A stretch of DNA of 62,907 bases, filler included, from Pseudomonadota bacterium (GTDB taxonomy: Bacteria > Bdellovibrionota_F > JAHFAK01 > JBDREC01), in NCBI GenBank assembly GCA_043820105.1. It is 6 parts of 6 records of this genome, joined end to end, with 100 filler letters (N's around TTAATTAATTAA, not from the genome) between each part and the next. Parts side by side here need not be neighbours in the genome. Positions count along the whole stretch, not along the records: positions 39,499 to 44,584 come from JBDREC010000007.1; 5 more parts are not named here. One strand, given 5' to 3'. Positions within the stretch are counted from its first letter, which is position 1. Every line of letters starts with the position of its first letter. Below are positions 12,879 to 48,736 of this stretch, one piece after another. The position numbers and the translations under genes were made by a program. A model generated the notes under the pieces. That model made no database searches and was not told where the DNA came from. It saw only the letters and a program-made list of their open reading frames with translations.

Positions 12879-12978
12879 NNNNNNNNNNNNNNNNNNNNNN
12901 NNNNNNNNNNNNNNNNNNNNNNTTAATTAATTAANNNNNNNNNNNNNNNNNNNNNNNNNNNNNNNNNNNNNNNNNNNN
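12879..12978. other. Artificial contig linker
   Basis: N44-TTAATTAATTAA-N44, stops in all six frames. Confidence 0.98.
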
Positions 12979-16179: not shown

Positions 16180-16279
16180 NNNNNNNNNNNNNNNNNNNNN
16201 NNNNNNNNNNNNNNNNNNNNNNNTTAATTAATTAANNNNNNNNNNNNNNNNNNNNNNNNNNNNNNNNNNNNNNNNNNNN
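16180..16279. other. Artificial contig linker
   Basis: N44-TTAATTAATTAA-N44. Confidence 0.98.
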
Positions 16280-18215: not shown

Positions 18216-18400
18216 TATATTAAGTTAATTTGCTAATTTCTGGTTAAATAAAAAATAATAATACTTGCCTGTGAATTTTAAGTCAAATTCTTAGTATGCA
18301 GAGAAAAATAAATAGATGACTTAAGCTTCATTTTATATGATACGTTTTGTGTTTAAAAAGCATAAAATTAATTTTAACTAAAATAAGTTTAATATTACTA

Positions 18401-19723
18401 ATGTCAAAAAAGATTAGAAGGCTGCTTTTAATAAAACCAGCGTTTAAAAATGGATTATGGGGTATAGATCTTTTTAAAATGCCACCTCTTTCTCTTGTTA
18501 ATATTGGTTCTCTGGTTTTGGAAAATTGTCCCAATTGGGAAGTTGAATTTTTAGATAATGATTTTGAAAAGATAAATTTTAATGGCAATTATGATTTAGT
18601 TGGAATAACAGTGAGCACTTCTTTGGCTAATGCAGCCTATTCAATTGCAGATAAATTTCGTTCAAGTGGTGTTTCTGTAATTTTGGGAGGTATTCACGCT
18701 ACCTTTTGTTTTGAAGAGGCAAAAAAACATGCAGATTGTGTAGTTAAGGGAGAAGCAGAAGAAATTTTTTTACAAGTACTGAGGGACTTTGAAAATAATA
18801 AAATGCATGCTTTTTATGACGGTGGAACCATTAAAGATCTTTCTAGTATTCCAAAACAAAGATTTGAATTAATTGCTAAGTATAACTATTTTGTCCCAAA
18901 TGTTATTCAGGCAACTAGAGGTTGCCCAGGCAAGTGTGCCTTTTGTTCTGCACAAAAATTTAATGGATCTAGGGTTAGATATCTTCCTGTTGATAAGGTT
19001 GTTGAAAATATCAAGAATGTTAAAAAATATGGAAAAAGCTTTTTTGGCCAATTTGGATTATTTTTTGCAGATGATAATATATTTACTAATAAAGAATACG
19101 CCAAGGAATTATTTAAAAAGATTACTCCCCTGAGAATCAGATGGGGTGCGCAGTGTTCTTTAAACATTGCTAAAGATCAAGAGCTATTGACTATGGCAAG
19201 AAAAAGTGGTTGCAGAGCACTTTTGGTAGGTTTTGAATCTATAAATCAAGAAGCCCTGAATGAAGTTAATAAAGGCTATTCTGTGCATGACTATGAAAAA
19301 ATGATTTTCAATATTCACAAAGCAGGTATTGCAGTTGATGCTTCAGTTATTTTTGGTTTTGAAAACGAAGATAAAAATACCATAGAAAAAACAGTGAAAT
19401 ATTTAATTAAAAATGAAATCGAACTTGCACAGTTTTCCATTTTAACACCTTATCCTGGATCTAAGCTATATGATAGTCAGGTAAAGCAATCTAAAATAAA
19501 AATATGGGATTGGAATCACTATGATCAATTTCACATGGTGTCTAAACACCACACCTGGTCAATTGATGAGCTTAATGATGGTTTAATCAATGCATATAGA
19601 TCTTTTTATTCAATAAGGTCTATCTTTAAAAGAATGTACAAAAATTTTAAAAGAATGAATTATCATTATGGATTAATAAGCAGTAAGATGAACTTTCAGT
19701 TTAGGAAATTTAATCCTAATTAA
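18401..19723 (+). CDS. Cobalamin-binding-domain radical SAM protein
   Basis: ILGGIHAT, VVKGEAE, RGCPGKCAFC (CxxxCxxC), FADDN, GFES, LTPYPGS. Confidence 0.92.
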   Translation: MSKKIRRLLLIKPAFKNGLWGIDLFKMPPLSLVNIGSLVLENCPNWEVEFLDNDFEKINFNGNYDLVGITVSTSLANAAYSIADKFRSSGVSVILGGIHATFCFEEAKKHADCVVKGEAEEIFLQVLRDFENNKMHAFYDGGTIKDLSSIPKQRFELIAKYNYFVPNVIQATRGCPGKCAFCSAQKFNGSRVRYLPVDKVVENIKNVKKYGKSFFGQFGLFFADDNIFTNKEYAKELFKKITPLRIRWGAQCSLNIAKDQELLTMARKSGCRALLVGFESINQEALNEVNKGYSVHDYEKMIFNIHKAGIAVDASVIFGFENEDKNTIEKTVKYLIKNEIELAQFSILTPYPGSKLYDSQVKQSKIKIWDWNHYDQFHMVSKHHTWSIDELNDGLINAYRSFYSIRSIFKRMYKNFKRMNYHYGLISSKMNFQFRKFNPN

Positions 19724-21960: not shown

Positions 21961-22060
21961 NNNNNNNNNNNNNNNNNNNNNNNNNNNNNNNNNNNNNNNN
22001 NNNNTTAATTAATTAANNNNNNNNNNNNNNNNNNNNNNNNNNNNNNNNNNNNNNNNNNNN
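21961..22060. other. Artificial contig linker
   Basis: N44-TTAATTAATTAA-N44. Confidence 0.98.
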
Positions 22061-22084: not shown

Positions 22085-22189
22085 ATACTGAATACTGAAT
22101 ACTGAATACTGAATACTGAATACTGAATACTGAATACTGAATACTGAATACTGAATACTGAATACTGAATACTGAATACTGAATACTGA
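22085..22189 (+). repeat. Heptamer tandem repeat (ATACTGA)x15
   Basis: 15 perfect units followed by degenerate ATACCCA/ATACCAA units. Confidence 0.95.
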
Positions 22190-22312
22190 ATACCCAATAC
22201 CAAAACCATTGGCAATTAAAAAAGATTTTTATTATATTTTTTTCTTGCGTATTCAAATAAAAGATTTTAATTTCACATCATTACATGGCAATCTTTTATG
22301 AAAGGAAGATTC

Positions 22313-25718: not shown

Positions 25719-26237
25719 ATGAAAAAAACTATTTTATATTATATTATTTTGATGATGTTTATATCAATATCAGTTTATTCTAAACCTTATTTCAACATTA
25801 AAGCTGGGGGTTTATATTCAATTTCCAATGAAGCAAGTGATCATTCAATTATTTCTTCCATTGGAATTTCCACAGGGTCAAAAAGAAACAGTGAGTTTTT
25901 AGGTCTTGAAATAAATGCTGGTCTTGATCCTGGTGAAGTCTCTGCATTTAGGTACATGACAATCAATGCAGCCTATACTTTTATTCCATGGAATCTACTT
26001 GTCTTTAAAGTTGGTCTAGGTGCAGCTGGAGCTAGAGCAGTAATTGATTCTCAAACATTCACAACTGGACCATATTTAAATGCAATATCCACAATAGGTG
26101 GACTTGGCTTGAATTTTGAGTTGTTGAGACATTATTTATGGTTACAAGTTCTAGGAGAATATATTGCAATTTGGGACTTAGATTTAAATAGAGATTTTGA
26201 TCTATTTTTAGTTAGTCTTCAACTTTCATTCTTTTAA
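25719..26237 (+). CDS. Hypothetical outer-membrane beta-barrel-like protein
   Basis: Signal peptide, amphipathic strand pattern, terminal Phe. Confidence 0.6.
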   Translation: MKKTILYYIILMMFISISVYSKPYFNIKAGGLYSISNEASDHSIISSIGISTGSKRNSEFLGLEINAGLDPGEVSAFRYMTINAAYTFIPWNLLVFKVGLGAAGARAVIDSQTFTTGPYLNAISTIGGLGLNFELLRHYLWLQVLGEYIAIWDLDLNRDFDLFLVSLQLSFF

Positions 26238-27401
26238 AGCTTCAATACCAGGCAACTTTTTTCCTTCAATAAATTCCATGGAAGCACCACCACCAGTTGA
26301 AATATGATTCATTCTGTCTTGAACACCTGCTTTATTAATCGCAGAAACTGAATCACCACCACCAATTACTGAAATGGCATTTGATGCAGCTAAAGCTTTT
26401 GCAATACTCAAAGTACCATTTGCAAAGGCTTCATTTTCAAAAACACCAACTGGTCCGTTCCAAAAAACTGTTGCAGAATTATTTATAATATCTTTATAAA
26501 GTTCAACTGTTTTTTCTCCAATATCAAGTCCCATGAAGTCTTTTTCAATACATGTACCTTCTGTTTTTATAATTTCTGTTGTATCTTTAATAGATTTTGA
26601 AATCACATGATCAAGAGGAAGAACAATTCTCTTATTTAAATCAGCAGCTTTTTTCATAATAATTTTTGTAAGTTCTAGTTTGTCATCTTCAACTAAAGAA
26701 TTGCCAACTTCAACACCTTGTGCCTTTAAAAAAGTATAAGACATAGCTCCACCAATGCAAATAACATCAGCAATATTTAATAAATTTTCAATTACTGTAA
26801 TTTTATCAGAAACCTTTGCTCCACCTAAAATTGCACAAAAAGGTCTTTCTGGATTTTCTAATATTTTACCTAGATAATCCATCTCTTTTTTTATTAATAA
26901 ACCACATCCTTTGTTTTCAACAAACTTTGTTATTCCAGCAACAGATGCATGAGCTCTGTGAACTGTTCCAAAAGCATCTGAAATAAATATATCTATGCCC
27001 TTTGCAAGTTCCTTTGAAAAACCTTCATCATTATCAGTTTCACACTTATCAAACCTTAAGTTTTCTAGTAAATAAATCTGTCCTTCATTTAGATCTTCTT
27101 TTACAGCTTCAACATCATCACCAATAGTTAAACCATTAAATAAAACTTCTTTATTTAAAAGTTCAGAAAGTCTTTTTGCTACAGGTCCTAAGCTCATTTC
27201 TGCAACAATCTTCCCCTTAGGTCTTCCCAGGTGAGACGCCAAAACCAGTTTTGCATTATTTTCAAGCAAGTAATTTATTGTAGGTAAACTCGCTTTAATC
27301 CTGGTATCATCAGAAATGATCCCATCTTTAATAGGAACATTAAAATCAACCCGAAGAAATACAAGTTTCCCCTTGAATTCAAAGTCTTTTAAAGTTTTCA
27401 T
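26226..27401 (-). CDS. pgk: Phosphoglycerate kinase
   Basis: RVDFNVP, ASHLGRP, LLENLRF, GGAKVSDK, HISTGGGAS. Confidence 0.98.
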   Translation of the reverse strand: MKTLKDFEFKGKLVFLRVDFNVPIKDGIISDDTRIKASLPTINYLLENNAKLVLASHLGRPKGKIVAEMSLGPVAKRLSELLNKEVLFNGLTIGDDVEAVKEDLNEGQIYLLENLRFDKCETDNDEGFSKELAKGIDIFISDAFGTVHRAHASVAGITKFVENKGCGLLIKKEMDYLGKILENPERPFCAILGGAKVSDKITVIENLLNIADVICIGGAMSYTFLKAQGVEVGNSLVEDDKLELTKIIMKKAADLNKRIVLPLDHVISKSIKDTTEIIKTEGTCIEKDFMGLDIGEKTVELYKDIINNSATVFWNGPVGVFENEAFANGTLSIAKALAASNAISVIGGGDSVSAINKAGVQDRMNHISTGGGASMEFIEGKKLPGIEALKE

Positions 27402-27459
27402 TAGATTTCCTTTCAAAGATTACACCGCACACCGTACGCTGTACGCTGTACGCCGTTCG

Positions 27460-28464
27460 CTACAGGCTTTTCCCAACCAATTCAGTTAAATCAACCATTC
27501 TAACAGAATATCCCATTTCATTATCATACCAGCTCATGACTTTAACTGTATTTCCATTTGAAACATAGGTTGTACCAGAATCATAAATTGATGATAAGTG
27601 TGATCCATTAAAATCAATAGAAACCAGGCTTTCATCAGAATATCCTAAATAACCTTTAAGTTCACCTTCAGCTGCTTCTTTAAAAGCTGCATTTACTTGA
27701 TCAACTGTTACATCTTTTTCAAGCACAGCAACAAAGTCTACAACAGAAACGTTTGGAGTTGGAACTCTCATTGCTAATCCATCAATTTTTCCTTTCATTT
27801 CTGGAATTACAAGCCCAACAGCTTTAGCTGCACCAGTTGTTGTTGGAATCATTGAAATAGCAGCAGCTCTTGCTCTTCTTATATCACTATGTGGAAAATC
27901 AAGAATTCTTTGATCATTTGTATAGGCATGAATTGTTGTCATTAAACCATTTTTAATACCAAAATTATTGTGCAAAACTTTAACAACAGGTGCCAAACAG
28001 TTAGTTGTACAAGATGCGTTAGAAATAATATGATGTTTTTCAGGATCATAAAGCTCATCATTAACACCAAGAACAATAGTTATATCTGGGTCTTTAGCAG
28101 GAGCTGAAATCAATACCTTTTTAGCGCCAGCATCAATATGTTTTTGACAAGTTGCCTGATCTCTAAAAAGCCCAGTAGATTCACACACAATGGAAACTCC
28201 AAGCTCAGCCCATGGCAATTCAGCAGGATCTTTTTGTGCGAAAATCTTAATTTCTTTTCCATTAACAATAATACTGTTTGCTGTGTGATCAACCGTGCCA
28301 TTAAACCTACCATGAACAGAATCATATTTAAACAAATGTGCAAGTGTTTTTGAATCAGTCAGATCATTAATAGCAACAACATTAACATCTGCTCTTGTCA
28401 TAGCAACTCTTAAATAAGCTCTGCCAATTCTACCAAATCCATTAATAGCAACATTAATACTCAT
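27460..28464 (-). CDS. gap: Glyceraldehyde-3-phosphate dehydrogenase (type I)
   Basis: [26 protein letters not shown]. Confidence 0.98.
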
Positions 28465-28812: not shown

Positions 28813-28916
28813 AAATCAGGCAAGGTGCCCACCTTTTTTCCTTGTAATTTATTTTGTCTTTTTATACTCATATTAGCTCCAAACGCATTAAATCGTTCTT
28901 TATTAGGAGGTATTTT

Positions 28917-30221
28917 ATGTCTTTAAAGGAAAAATTCGCTGCCAAGATCGATCCAGTCCGAGATGAAATAAAGTCAATATTAAAAGAAAATGGAGATAAA
29001 GTAATAAGTGAAGTTACTTTAGCTCAAGCTTATGGCGGAATGAGGGGAGTTAAATGCATGGTTACTGAAACCTCATCTGTGGACCCAAATGAGGGAATTA
29101 GATTTAGAGGATATACAATACCTGAACTTAGAGAAAAACTTCCTAAAGCAAAAGGAAAAGAAGAACCCTTGCCAGAAGGTGTTTTTTATCTTCTATTAAT
29201 GGGTGAATTGCCATCTGAAGATGATGTTTCAGAACTTTCTTCTGAATGGAATAAAAGAAATGAAATTCCAAGCTACCTTTGGACAATGCTTGATAATCTT
29301 CCCAGGGAATGTCACCCAATGACTCAATTTTCACTGGCTATTTTAGCACTTCAACAAGAATCAGTTTTTACAAAACAATATAGAGCTGGTATTAATAAAA
29401 AAGATTACTGGGATCCCTGCTATGAAGATGTTATGAATATTTTAGCTAAACTTCCTAGAATCGCTGCCTATATTTACCAAAGAAGTTATAAAGAAGGAAA
29501 GAAAATTGACCCTGATAAAAATCTAGATTGGTCTGGAAACCTGGCTCAAATGATGGGAATCGAGGGTGATAGCTTTAAAGAACTAATGAGGCTATATATG
29601 GTTCTTCATAGTGATCATGAAGGCGGAAATGTTTCTGCTCATGCTACACACCTAGTAGGCTCTGCATTGTCTGATCCTTACTATTCCCTATCATCCGGAA
29701 TCAATGGGCTTGCTGGCCCACTTCACGGCCTAGCCAACCAAGAGGTTTTGAGATGGATTATTGATACAAAAAATAAAATTCAACAAAAAGGCGGCGGTGA
29801 AATAACACCTAATCTACTCAGAGAATTTTGCTGGGACACCCTAAAAGGTGGACAAGTTATTCCAGGATACGGACATGCAGTCCTTCGAAAAACTGATCCT
29901 AGATTCGCTGCCTTATTAGAATTTGGTAAAAAACACTGTCCAAATGATGAGATATATAAAGTAGTAGAAATGCTTTATGATATTGTTCCAGACGTATTAA
30001 TGGAACATGGAAAAGCACAGAATCCTTGGCCAAATGTTGATGCAGGATCAGGCTGCTTACTTGTTAATTTTGGGATGAGTGAATATGATTTCTACACAGT
30101 ACTTTTTGGTGTTTCAAGGGCAATTGGTGTTTTATCATCCCTAATTTGGGATAGAGCCCTTGGCCTTCCAATTGAAAGACCAAAATCTGTCACCTCTGAA
30201 TGGGTAAAAACTCAAATCTAA
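28917..30221 (+). CDS. gltA: Citrate synthase, eukaryotic type
   Basis: AYGGMRG, PLPEG, HSDHEGGNVSAH, GLAGPLHGLANQEV, PGYGHAVLRKTDPR, NPWPNVDA, PIERPKS; AGGAGG RBS before 28917. Confidence 0.95.
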   Translation: MSLKEKFAAKIDPVRDEIKSILKENGDKVISEVTLAQAYGGMRGVKCMVTETSSVDPNEGIRFRGYTIPELREKLPKAKGKEEPLPEGVFYLLLMGELPSEDDVSELSSEWNKRNEIPSYLWTMLDNLPRECHPMTQFSLAILALQQESVFTKQYRAGINKKDYWDPCYEDVMNILAKLPRIAAYIYQRSYKEGKKIDPDKNLDWSGNLAQMMGIEGDSFKELMRLYMVLHSDHEGGNVSAHATHLVGSALSDPYYSLSSGINGLAGPLHGLANQEVLRWIIDTKNKIQQKGGGEITPNLLREFCWDTLKGGQVIPGYGHAVLRKTDPRFAALLEFGKKHCPNDEIYKVVEMLYDIVPDVLMEHGKAQNPWPNVDAGSGCLLVNFGMSEYDFYTVLFGVSRAIGVLSSLIWDRALGLPIERPKSVTSEWVKTQI

Positions 30222-39398: not shown

Positions 39399-39498
39399 NN
39401 NNNNNNNNNNNNNNNNNNNNNNNNNNNNNNNNNNNNNNNNNNTTAATTAATTAANNNNNNNNNNNNNNNNNNNNNNNNNNNNNNNNNNNNNNNNNNNN
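39399..39498. other. Artificial contig linker
   Basis: N44-TTAATTAATTAA-N44. Confidence 0.98.
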
Positions 39499-42800: not shown

Positions 42801-42889
42801 ATAAATTTAGTTGCTTATCTGGTTTTCTTAAAAAATAAAATAATTGTAGACTTTATACTGTGTATATTATATTAATTTTATATATCATT

Positions 42890-43315
42890 ATGAAAAAATA
42901 TTTGGATTCAAATATGACAAAAAAGGATTTGGCGAAACTTGTTCAATACTGGAAAAATGGTTCAAAAATCAACTTTGATTCAGCAAAAGAAATTGGCAAG
43001 AAAACTGAAAATTATGTTGATGCTTTGTTTCTTCTTCATTTGACGACTGAAAAAATATTAAAAGCATATTTAGTACAGGCAAGTGGAAAACATTCTCCTT
43101 TATCTCATAATTTGCTATACTTGGCTCAGCTATCATCTTTAAGATTAACTAGGGATAAAACAATACTACTTTCTGAGATTAATGAGTTTAATCTAGAATG
43201 CAGATATCCTGATGATAAATACACTATTTATAAATTAGCCAACAAGGCTATGTTTGACAATTATTTAAAAAAGATAGAAAAGTTTAGAAAATGGATATTA
43301 AGCAAATTAAAGTAA
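42890..43315 (+). CDS. HEPN domain protein
   Basis: W...S..D...A, ALF.LHL..EK.LKA, HNL..LA, ECRYPD. Confidence 0.88.
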   Translation: MKKYLDSNMTKKDLAKLVQYWKNGSKINFDSAKEIGKKTENYVDALFLLHLTTEKILKAYLVQASGKHSPLSHNLLYLAQLSSLRLTRDKTILLSEINEFNLECRYPDDKYTIYKLANKAMFDNYLKKIEKFRKWILSKLK

Positions 43316-43611
43316 TAGTTATTCAATTGCGGAAATTATTACTACAAAACAATATAAAGCCTGATTTATTTATTCTTTATGGTTCATATGCTCAAGGTAA
43401 TCAAACAGATGAAAGTGATATAGATATCGCATGTGTTTCAAGAGATTTCGGGAAAAATAGATTCAAAGAAGGAAGCTTATTAAATTATTTAATATCAAAA
43501 ATTGATGCTAAAATCGAGCTTGTACCCATAGGACTAGAAGAATACTTATCAGGAAAATCAATTTCTCCAATTTTAAATGAAATTATTAAAAATGGAACAC
43601 CATTACTGTGA
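43291..43611 (+). CDS. Minimal nucleotidyltransferase (MNT), HEPN partner
   Basis: LYGSYAQG...ESDIDI; overlaps the HEPN gene. Confidence 0.9.
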   Translation: MDIKQIKVIVIQLRKLLLQNNIKPDLFILYGSYAQGNQTDESDIDIACVSRDFGKNRFKEGSLLNYLISKIDAKIELVPIGLEEYLSGKSISPILNEIIKNGTPLL

Positions 43612-43791: not shown

Positions 43792-44316
43792 TTAGTCTTC
43801 AGCAAGTGTAGTAATAGATCCACCCTTATAGGCGTCTGCAGAACCGGTACTATCTCTTCTTACTATTTGTTGATATTTTGCAACGGTATCGTCATTATCT
43901 AGATCTTGAAAAACAAGAATTCCAACGCTCACAGTAACGCTGTTTTTTGTGTCTACTTCAAATGTTCCATACAAATCGCCATCAGGGACATAACCAATTA
44001 TTTTACAGTCTGTATTATTGGCTACGATGCTTTGACTGCCCTGGTTTTTATCACCAGTAAGCTTGGCGAATTGTCCTGTGTTCCATGGTGTAGCAGCAGC
44101 TCCGTTTCCATTAGCTCCAGTAAATTCATGAAATTTTGCATTATTAATATTGTAATCAGCTTCAGCTGCAAACACACCATTAATAAGCATTCCAACTTCT
44201 GACTTCTTAGACTTCTTGATATAAGCCATAAAAGACGGAATCGCGATCGCTGCCAAGATGCCGATAATGGCAACTACGATCATTAGTTCAACCAGGGTAA
44301 AGCCTTTCTTTTTCAT
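43792..44316 (-). CDS. Type IVa pilin
   Basis: MKKKG|FTLVELMIVVAIIGILAAIAIP prepilin cleavage/methylation motif; AAGGAG RBS. Confidence 0.92.
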   Translation of the reverse strand: MKKKGFTLVELMIVVAIIGILAAIAIPSFMAYIKKSKKSEVGMLINGVFAAEADYNINNAKFHEFTGANGNGAAATPWNTGQFAKLTGDKNQGSQSIVANNTDCKIIGYVPDGDLYGTFEVDTKNSVTVSVGILVFQDLDNDDTVAKYQQIVRRDSTGSADAYKGGSITTLAED

Positions 44317-44352
44317 GTGGTCTCCTTTGGAAAAAGTTTATGTTATTTTTGG

Positions 44353-44380
44353 TACAGCGTACAGCGTACGGCGTACAGCG
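44353..44380 (+). repeat. Heptamer repeat (TACRGCG)x4
   Basis: TACAGCG TACAGCG TACGGCG TACAGCG; same unit reversed at about 27433-27460. Confidence 0.8.
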
Positions 44381-44449
44381 TGAAGGTGTTACCCTGCACG
44401 CTCTTTCAGTGAAGGTCCGTCTTGCACTGTTTTAACTTTGTGAAAAAAC

Positions 44450-44565
44450 AATTTTCCTCCGCGGGATTTTAGGCTTTGGCGAGTGGTCGGGCTTATAGAA
44501 TATTTCTATTTACCGTTGCGGGACAGCACCGGATTCTCACCGGATTTTCCTCTATCCAAGCCATT
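44450..44565 (-). ncRNA. Cobalamin riboswitch (short, class II-like)
   Basis: Transcript-sense GGCTTGG ATAGAGGAAA ATCCGG-TGAGAAT-CCGGT GCTGTCCCGCAACGGTAA ATAGAA-ATA-TTCTAT AAGCCCGACCACTCG CCAAAGCC. This has the T-loop hairpin, the CCCGCAACGGTAA core, a B12-box-like segment and a closing stem. Confidence 0.82.
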
Positions 44566-44584
44566 AGGTTTCAAAGTTGTTTCT

Positions 44585-44684
44585 NNNNNNNNNNNNNNNN
44601 NNNNNNNNNNNNNNNNNNNNNNNNNNNNTTAATTAATTAANNNNNNNNNNNNNNNNNNNNNNNNNNNNNNNNNNNNNNNNNNNN
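44585..44684. other. Artificial contig linker
   Basis: N44-TTAATTAATTAA-N44. Confidence 0.98.
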
Positions 44685-46676: not shown

Positions 46677-46886
46677 ATTCTCTCCTTTTTTTAAGTGGTA
46701 AGTCGTAAGTGGTAAGAAGTAAGGTTTTTGTTTCCACTTTTTAACCTACCTTAAGTTAAAAATAAAAAAAATTACTCTATAATGTCTCCTTTTTTTTATG
46801 AATAATACATAGAATAAGCTTTTGGCCTGTAATTTCAAGGCCGGGATGGTTTTCAAATAATGTTTTAAGGTTTAAGTTTTTTATCA

Positions 46887-48437: not shown

Positions 48438-48736
48438 ATTGTTGGCATGGCTTATAAGTGGTAAGCGGTAAGTGATAAGTGGTAAGTTTAGAGGAGATTA
48501 TTTTTTTTGATATTTTTGGAATAAGGATTTATTAAACATTCTGTATTTGCTTGCTTTATAAGTTATCATTTGATACTCATTTGTGCGAATAAATTGAATT
48601 TTATTAATAATTTTATAGTGGATCCTAGAAAAAACAGGAAAAGCTGGGTTTTTAATTCAAAATCCAAAATTTAGAATTTAAAATTTACATACAGCTTACC
48701 ACTTACCACTTATAACTTTTAACAAGGGGTAAAAAT

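Follow-up and report, generated by a model that had tools for sequence, protein, structure and literature searches.

A cobalamin riboswitch and a 20-codon leader ORF upstream of a lone type IVa-like pilin gene in a Bdellovibrionota-like bacterium

Results

The riboswitch and pilin locus

We analysed a 62,907-nt stretch of DNA (the window) from a bacterium deposited as Pseudomonadota (assembly GCA_043820105.1), in which a cobalamin (vitamin B12) riboswitch precedes a short leader open reading frame (ORF) and a single type IVa-like pilin gene on the minus strand. The window consists of six contigs joined by N44-TTAATTAATTAA-N44 linkers (12879-12978, 16180-16279, 21961-22060, 39399-39498 and 44585-44684), and gene neighbourhoods across the linkers are therefore not real. 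Only 9 nt separate the riboswitch from the end of its 5,086-bp contig (39499-44584), so that its promoter and upstream sequence are off the contig. The features of the locus are:

44446-44575, minus strand: cobalamin riboswitch, a compact class-II-like aptamer with the regulatory hairpin P13 (Rfam RF01482, AdoCbl; cmscan)
44523-44521, minus strand: bases U-C-C of loop L5, the aptamer side of the predicted kissing loop (covariation with L13)
44455-44466, minus strand: regulatory hairpin P13/L13, UCC-CGCGGA-GGA, with L13 bases G-G-A (44460-44458) predicted to pair with L5
44460-44456, minus strand: Shine-Dalgarno (SD) sequence GGAGG inside the P13/L13 hairpin, an element kept in relatives
44389-44451, minus strand: leader mini-ORF with a UUG start 4 nt after GGAGGAAAA, 20 codons (MFFHKVKTVQDGPSLKERAG) and the stop UAA (44391-44389) (ORF scan)
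44407-44429 and 44377-44402, minus strand: two similar tandem hairpins (GUGCA.G...ACCUUCAC) that overlap the end of the mini-ORF (minimum free energy (MFE) and centroid folds)
44352-44381, minus strand: tandem array of the heptamer GCUGUAC (RNA strand), 4.3 copies, which folds as a hairpin (Tandem Repeats Finder)
44314-44336, minus strand: pilin translation start region, CUUUUUC...GGAG (44325-44322)...AUG (44316-44314) (leader sequence and folds)
43792-44316, minus strand: type IVa-like pilin, 174 aa, with a 5-residue leader, one Cys and the loop QDLDNDD (Pfam, TIGR, structural model)

A compact cobalamin riboswitch

Using cmscan on the whole window, RF01482 was the single Rfam family detected at gathering thresholds. 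The match scored 50.5 bits (gathering cut-off 50; E 2.6e-6), covered positions 1-149 of the 149 of the model and was recovered in a local search (E 3.6e-8). This bore out the initial annotation, which had placed a riboswitch of this kind on the pilin strand from the sequence alone. The cmscan alignment contained the conserved cobalamin core GGUG..AAUCC..C.GUCCCGCAACGGU ... AAGCCCGA (clan CL00101), and the element has a four-way-junction core, a short P6 and a short J1/13 linker (UAAAA).

We compared the element with riboswitches of the phylum Bdellovibrionota. A search with RF01482 and RF00174 of the 38 genomes of the order nearest to the host by RpoN yielded 18 distinct places, and a search with RF01482 of 151 genomes of the phylum yielded 45, of which 27 were taken as new loci; 45 places were examined from both searches together. 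In an alignment of the window riboswitch with six of these, the core columns were invariant, all 91 cells of the four helices were paired (100% for the P13 stem) and one compensatory pair was present. A regular expression recognised the 3' element AUCCCG.G(G/C)AGGA in 22 of 31 cores, the window included; nine cores were without a recognised element. In every printed row with the element, an ATG, GTG or TTG was found within 10 nt of its GGA. The element folds as a 3-bp hairpin (UCC/GGA) with a loop able to base-pair with L5. In the L5 triplet the middle position is G or C (C in the window), the facing L13 position is C or G, and the resulting pair was C:G in 13 and G:C in nine of the 22 riboswitches (no mismatches). 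The initial annotation had proposed CGCGGAGG (44462-44455) as the kissing partner. This was the right place, but the relatives support the register that pairs U-C-C (44523-44521) with G-G-A (44460-44458).

The gated start codon opens a long ORF in most relatives. By Pfam, the genes include TonB-dependent receptors, a ribonucleotide reductase, a 4HBT thioesterase and a protein with a type IX secretion system (T9SS) sorting tail. Further gated ORFs, named from their N-termini alone, are TonB-receptor-like, lipoprotein-like or small proteins with twin-arginine-like signals and without a Pfam family; one of the TonB-receptor-like ORFs (L497) starts at a UUG with the spacing found in the window.

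The riboswitch nearest in sequence was that of locus L490 (1515-1692, G062:C178), with a score of 69 against 47 for the next; about 85% of the aligned aptamer columns were identical to the window by eye estimate. It gates a very hydrophobic ORF of 20 aa (MCGIVFILFVTFFSVFSLAP). The next long ORF, about 200 nt further on, has 408 aa, is open at the locus end, carries a hydrophobic signal-like N-terminus and is without a Pfam family. A riboswitch followed by a mini-ORF may thus be a real architecture in the sub-lineage of the window and L490.

We considered whether the Rfam match could have arisen by chance, with no riboswitch present, as a score just 0.5 bits above the cut-off might indicate. 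The E-value holds for the whole window, the aptamer columns agree with those of L490 to the extent given above, and both the invariance of the core and the covariation of the loop base speak against chance. A chance match was already disfavoured and, by our estimate, is highly improbable. The assignment to the class, made by sequence comparison, rests on the core and the covariation and not on the score alone. We conclude that the element is, as judged from these features, a functional compact cobalamin riboswitch of the type standard for Bdellovibrionota, with corrinoid binding predicted.

Two further observations were made on the relatives. In three loci of the nearest order (L457, G127:C35; L461, G093:C99; L462, G161:C3), the riboswitches gate proteins of 181-194 aa with twin-arginine-like signals (RRQFL/RRTFL). 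These proteins are without a Pfam family and are candidates for unnamed periplasmic B12-related proteins. In three Bdellovibrionota genomes (L510, L504, L488), a cobalamin riboswitch precedes a 4HBT-type thioesterase, an unusual member of a B12 regulon; the assignment was by Pfam for L510 and by sequence likeness for L504 and L488.

The leader between riboswitch and pilin

The mini-ORF is the sole minus-strand ORF of at least 20 aa between the Rfam match and the pilin ATG, and its UUG, which overlaps the last bases of the match, occupies the position of the regulated gene starts in the relatives. The claim that no substantial gene intervenes therefore held. The distance from the end of the match to the ATG is 129 nt and not 135-155 nt as initially annotated. 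The stop of the mini-ORF lies 72 nt from the pilin AUG. Rho loading sites are C-rich and G-poor, and the 60 nt of the leader 3' of this stop contain 19 C versus 8 G.

Between the riboswitch and the pilin ATG, no sigma-70-like site on the minus strand was found in a promoter scan and no terminator-like site was detected. A sigma-54 consensus (up to two mismatches) was absent from 44317-44584, in agreement with the initial reading of the visible leader, and occurred 38 times elsewhere in the window.

Control of the pilin by the riboswitch could be direct, as the initial annotation had implied: B12 binding would refold the long leader and thereby hide or expose the pilin's own ribosome-binding site. 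The predicted folds do place the pilin SD and AUG in a 7-bp hairpin, in which CUUUUUC pairs with GAAAAAG in the first pilin codons (44313-44307). In addition, pilin codons 5-6 contribute GGCUU to a pairing with the P1 3' strand in the MFE fold, and the fold of the whole leader has a z-score of -3.0. However, the hairpin is local and independent of the aptamer, the long-range pairing is short (6 bp) and its GGCUUU simply encodes the conserved Gly-Phe. Moreover, the platform conserved in the relatives is P13 with its own SD. The SD and start that would be occluded belong to the leader ORF, and the pilin has a GGAG of its own. The implied direct control was thus not supported, and we regard it as very unlikely.

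The tandem hairpins suggest another possibility. In the eut locus of Enterococcus and Listeria, a riboswitch controls a non-coding RNA (EutX/Rli55), and targets of ANTAR proteins follow a rule of a hexaloop with A1/G4. By analogy, the tandem hairpins would serve as a protein-binding decoy whose availability depends on B12. The two similar hairpins with 6-nt loops in tandem fit this idea, as does the presence of the duplicated units in different frames of the mini-ORF, which points to a feature of the RNA and not of the peptide. It is also consistent with the best-scoring Rfam family being RF01482, which is linked to class IIb. Class IIb switches of eut loci are described in PMC11477304. On the other hand, the hairpins have no terminator after them, ANTAR and eut genes were absent from the window ORFs scanned (a part of all ORFs), and the relatives use the platform for ordinary translational control. 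Furthermore, the first loop (ACGGAC) alone fits the A1/G4 rule, while the second (GUAACA) does not. The hairpins matched no Rfam family and had no further copy in the window. We give very little credence to a decoy RNA at this locus.

The unit of the heptamer array, GCTGTAC, recurs on another contig at 27434-27461, before the gene at 26226-27416. Tandem heptamer arrays were seen in intergenic DNA at 22085-22193, 27434-27461, 44352-44381, 46692-46716, 48455-48487 and 48695-48712; the heptamer ATACTGA reaches 15.6 tandem copies, and TAAGTGG and its reverse complement flank rpoN. We rejected a misassembly at the heptamer repeat, since no repeat longer than 20 nt is shared with the other contig. 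A single broken frame comprising mini-ORF and pilin was likewise rejected; although the two share a frame, they are separated by two UAA stops.

The pilin and its family

The pilin begins with MKKKG followed by FTLVELMIVVAIIG and matches PF07963 (N_methyl) with 37.7 bits. The class III signal is complete, with a short basic leader, Gly-1, Phe+1, Glu+5 and a hydrophobic helix (MKKKG followed by FTLVELMIVVAIIGILAAIAIP; TIGR02532, 37.7 bits). Pfam domains besides PF07963 were not found at E up to 0.01, PF07596 thus being absent, and the protein has no H-X9-DG motif: its single His is at residue 63, with no DG ten residues on. It is therefore not of the DUF1559/H-X9-DG type. The whole pilin has one cysteine and consequently no disulfide of the D-region.

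A search of 5.8 billion proteins returned 25 full-length relatives (E 4e-81 to 7e-24), after which the matches dropped sharply to generic PilA-like proteins at E 1.6e-16. The three closest relatives (P0002-P0004) are 75-76% identical. The accessions of all eight family members that were looked up at NCBI are in the range MFH1727435-MFH1728991, and three of these accessions are consecutive. One 93,318-bp contig carries three members of the family. From the accession range and the shared contig we infer that the NCBI members come from one assembly with many paralogues. No paralogue of the pilin was found in the window.

Conserved in the family are IG(Y/F).P and a QDLD.D loop that is invariant, mostly reads QDLDDDG and is DxDxDG-like. 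DxDxDG is a calcium-loop pattern, and this loop, which takes the place of the usual disulfide, may be a calcium site. The AlphaFold2 model (mean pLDDT 79.7) shows a sheet of four strands besides the long helix. Its top six matches in Foldseek were type IVa pilins of Neisseria and Myxococcus, albeit weak ones (best E 9.4e-3, TM-score 0.34-0.46, none at E 1e-3). A profile search of PDB sequences matched the N-terminal part alone (Myxococcus PilA 8tj2, E 3.6e-16). No match resembling a B12 binder was found for the pilin head among the Foldseek matches, which were all pilins.

Riboswitches upstream of pilin-like genes elsewhere

None of the 45 Bdellovibrionota places examined has a type IVa-like pilin after the riboswitch, and one (L460) precedes a DUF1559 prepilin-type protein. 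The latter locus (1501-2705, G032:C6; nearest order) encodes a 357-aa protein with N_methyl and DUF1559 domains and an H-X9-DG motif, which starts at the gated AUG and stands alone. Its reading frame begins 97 residues before the GFTL motif, indicating an unusually long leader or an internal start.

A riboswitch core followed by GFTL.E at 162-221 nt was found in at least 119 stretches (one genome per species). Twelve of these, chosen by eye for a riboswitch-like core, were run against Rfam, and in seven of the 12 a cobalamin-clan match was located just upstream of the prepilin ORF, in several phyla. Four of five complete prepilin ORFs carry DUF1559, and an H-X9-DG-like motif was seen by eye in all five.

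The pilin family itself was not found full-length in the genome and viral DNA collections searched. The pattern MKKKGF, gap, QDLD.D occurred in no stretch of the genome contig and viral contig collections. A profile of the family had 11 matches at E 1e-20 in 401 sampled genomes of the phylum, all partial and none full-length, and no match at E 1e-24 in the 38 genomes of the nearest order. Among the matches listed for related loci in genome and metagenome contigs, the pilins share the N-terminal helix alone. Searching for the cobalamin core by regular expression, a crude test, gave no hit in 160 listed generic pilin loci (L001-L080, L161-L240); among all 320 listed loci there were four short-core matches, all in non-pilin loci. 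No RNA run was listed for the stretch. One public DNA run, matching 0.22 of the sampled words, contained low-depth fragments of the organism, and no contig from it spanned the junction of riboswitch and pilin or passed the contig end. The same run also gave conserved pilin N-termini and riboswitch cores of other organisms. Our literature searches listed no publication that connects a cobalamin riboswitch with a type IV pilin or prepilin gene.

Host and neighbouring genes

The window is AT-rich (G+C ~31%). The named relatives of its RpoN at 58-62% identity are metagenome-assembled genomes (MAGs) of Bdellovibrionota, Bdellovibrionales and 'Pseudomonadota bacterium', followed by Desulfobacterales and Deltaproteobacteria MAGs (57-58%); among 401 sampled Bdellovibrionota genomes, the best RpoN match was 59%. 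RapZ (best 42%) and PPDK (best 70%, Ignavibacteria) pointed to mixed phyla without a close relative. Judging from these proteins, we treat the host, an uncultured bacterium, as a deep, AT-rich Bdellovibrionota-like lineage. The window encodes a B12-binding radical-SAM-like protein (18347-19723), and the organism therefore uses B12. The citrate synthase (28854-30221) is of the 'eukaryotic' type (TIGR01793, 634 bits, above the cut-off).

The genes rpoN, hpf and rapZ, which adjoin the riboswitch in the window, belong to a different contig and are not true neighbours. Besides the riboswitch and the pilin, the 5,086-bp contig holds a hybrid histidine kinase and the following gene pair:

42860-43611, plus strand: HEPN and minimal nucleotidyltransferase genes, overlapping and toxin-antitoxin-like, convergent with the pilin

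The pilin is therefore the last gene of its transcription unit. No other pili- or B12-related genes, including assembly genes of the pilBCDMNOPQ type, were found on the contig.

Discussion

A possible relay through the leader ORF

Cobalamin riboswitches almost always mark genes for B12 uptake, B12 synthesis or B12-independent isoenzymes. As a riboswitch, the element described here is typical of its class. What sets it apart is its output: a mini-ORF and, after it, a single type IVa-like pilin. The observation of the initial annotation is confirmed, and its interpretation is partly supported.

The switch directly gates the 20-codon mini-ORF, and any B12 control of the pilin would thus be indirect, plausibly via translation of the leader ORF as in the ppe2 gene of Mycobacterium tuberculosis, whose product PPE2 is a surface protein. 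We hypothesize that a transcript headed by the riboswitch would run through the leader ORF into the single pilin gene. Upon binding of B12, L5 (U-C-C) would dock on L13 (G-G-A), P13 would close and the GGAGG of the mini-ORF would be hidden. Comparison with the relatives shows this step, in which the kissing loop is predicted to close P13 over the SD. The leader would then remain untranslated and, we infer, pilin expression would fall, most likely by Rho-dependent termination or by faster decay of the naked C-rich leader. The pilin would accordingly be made mainly when B12 is scarce. We regard this relay from B12 through leader-ORF translation to the pilin, the best of the explanations considered, as tentative, with the balance tipped slightly against it. 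As to the function of a pilin made during B12 starvation, we speculate that it could serve in attachment to prey or partners, or in corrinoid capture.

Several findings weigh against such a relay. The pilin has a strong SD of its own, and its AUG is separated from the switch by 129 nt and from the mini-ORF stop by 72 nt; with this 72-nt gap a termination-reinitiation of the ppe2 type is unlikely. No structure linking the switch to the ribosome-binding site of the pilin was found. The promoter is unseen, as the contig ends 9 nt upstream, and the promoter scan was crude, so that a weak promoter may exist in the AT-rich leader. The Rfam score is marginal, and the compensatory pair in the seven-sequence alignment is a single event, its value being reached by 82 of 500 shuffles. 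Although L490 has a mini-ORF too, its peptide and that of the window are unrelated in sequence. Finally, a prepilin motif within 1.5 kb downstream on the same strand was present at one of the 45 riboswitch places of the phylum (L460), and a type IVa-like pilin at none.

The main rival explanation is a stand-alone or relic switch. Riboswitch and mini-ORF would be self-contained, or would be the leader remnant of a lost gene such as one for a TonB receptor or a small exported protein, and the pilin, one of many mobile paralogues, would have landed downstream and be expressed independently. In those relatives in which the 3' hairpin is recognised, a start codon follows directly after P13; in the window there are 20 codons alone at this place. 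The SD of the pilin, the highly paralogous family (eight of eight accessions in a narrow range, three members on one contig) and the absence of type IVa-like pilins from the 45 places would all be expected under this explanation. Precisely between mini-ORF and pilin there is a heptamer repeat of a kind present at other places in the window, and in L490 the switch and its 20-aa ORF are about 200 nt from the next gene. However, the switch has kept its aptamer, P13, SD and covarying loop base intact, which argues for a present function. Moreover, with no terminator-like site before the pilin, read-through would be expected anyway, and no promoter-like site for the pilin was found. We consider a stand-alone or relic switch unlikely, if still a serious candidate.

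If the relay through the leader ORF is true, a surface-filament subunit would be under a B12 switch, which would be an unrecognised link between vitamin status and pili, and a second, independent pilin family would be tied to B12 after the DUF1559 proteins. If it is not true, the locus remains a clear illustration of a riboswitch gating a start codon that has no gene behind it any longer. A broader proposal would be that B12 sensing has repeatedly and convergently recruited pilin-like proteins as an output. In addition to the DUF1559 pseudopilins of the Planctomycetes-Verrucomicrobia-Chlamydiae (PVC) group and Armatimonadota, a Bdellovibrio-like lineage would have put a type IVa pilin variant under a cobalamin riboswitch via a leader ORF. 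The special pilus built in B12 starvation would serve TonB-independent corrinoid capture, or B12 starvation would be the hunger signal that arms a prey-attachment pilus in a predator getting its cofactors from prey. We consider this proposal improbable.

Comparison with known systems

The DUF1559/H-X9-DG prepilin loci resemble the window in having a cobalamin riboswitch ahead of a gene whose product carries a prepilin-type N-terminal methylation motif. In contrast, the distance from their core to the prepilin ORF is 162-221 nt, a spacing set by the search pattern, and in L460 the ORF starts directly at the gated AUG, whereas the 174-aa pilin of the window is type IVa-like and lacks PF07596 and H-X9-DG. 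With the type IVa major pilins (Neisseria PilE 1ay2/2hi2, Myxococcus PilA 8tj2) the window pilin shares the short leader, Gly-1/Phe+1/Glu+5, the long N-terminal helix and a predicted beta-sheet head. It differs from them in its one Cys, its QDLD.D loop and a head that matches no named family.

A riboswitch in the leader of type IV pilin genes has a precedent in Clostridioides difficile, where a cyclic di-GMP (c-di-GMP-II) riboswitch before the type IV pilus operon CD3513-03 is described as a transcriptional ON switch (PMC11477304). That switch responds to a second messenger and turns on a whole pilus operon, unlike the window, where a vitamin OFF switch (predicted) precedes a lone pilin.

For class II cobalamin switches of the env8HyCbl type, Polaski et al. 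2016 (PMC5028336) describe an L5-L13 kissing loop that depends on cobalamin and hides the ribosome-binding site, which is part of L13. The window element is like this type (class II; RF01482/RF01689) in its four-way junction, short P6, short J1/13, P13 loop with an SD pairing with L5 and a start codon just after. It differs in that the gated start opens 20 codons and the first real gene is the pilin, 72 nt past the stop and with its own SD.

The closest parallel for the leader ORF is the ppe2 gene of M. tuberculosis. As described by Kipkorir et al. 2024 (PMC11260477), it has a compact B12 OFF switch, class-IIb-like, with the SD of a short upstream ORF (uORF), uPPE2, in its L13 hairpin. Expression of ppe2, whose protein is given there as of uncertain function, depends on translation of the uORF; the uORF stop overlaps the ppe2 start (AUGA), ppe2 is stated to have no SD of its own and coupling is attributed to termination-reinitiation (PMC11260477). 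In the window, the L13 hairpin likewise holds the SD (GGAGG, 44460-44456) of a short uORF (UUG 44451, 20 codons). In contrast to ppe2, a gap of 72 nt separates UAA and AUG in place of the AUGA overlap, and the pilin has its own GGAG (44325-44322). With this gap and a good pilin SD, coupling in the window, if any, must work unlike that of ppe2. If the relay is true, the locus would join M. tuberculosis ppe2 as a second example in which a B12 switch works via a leader ORF.

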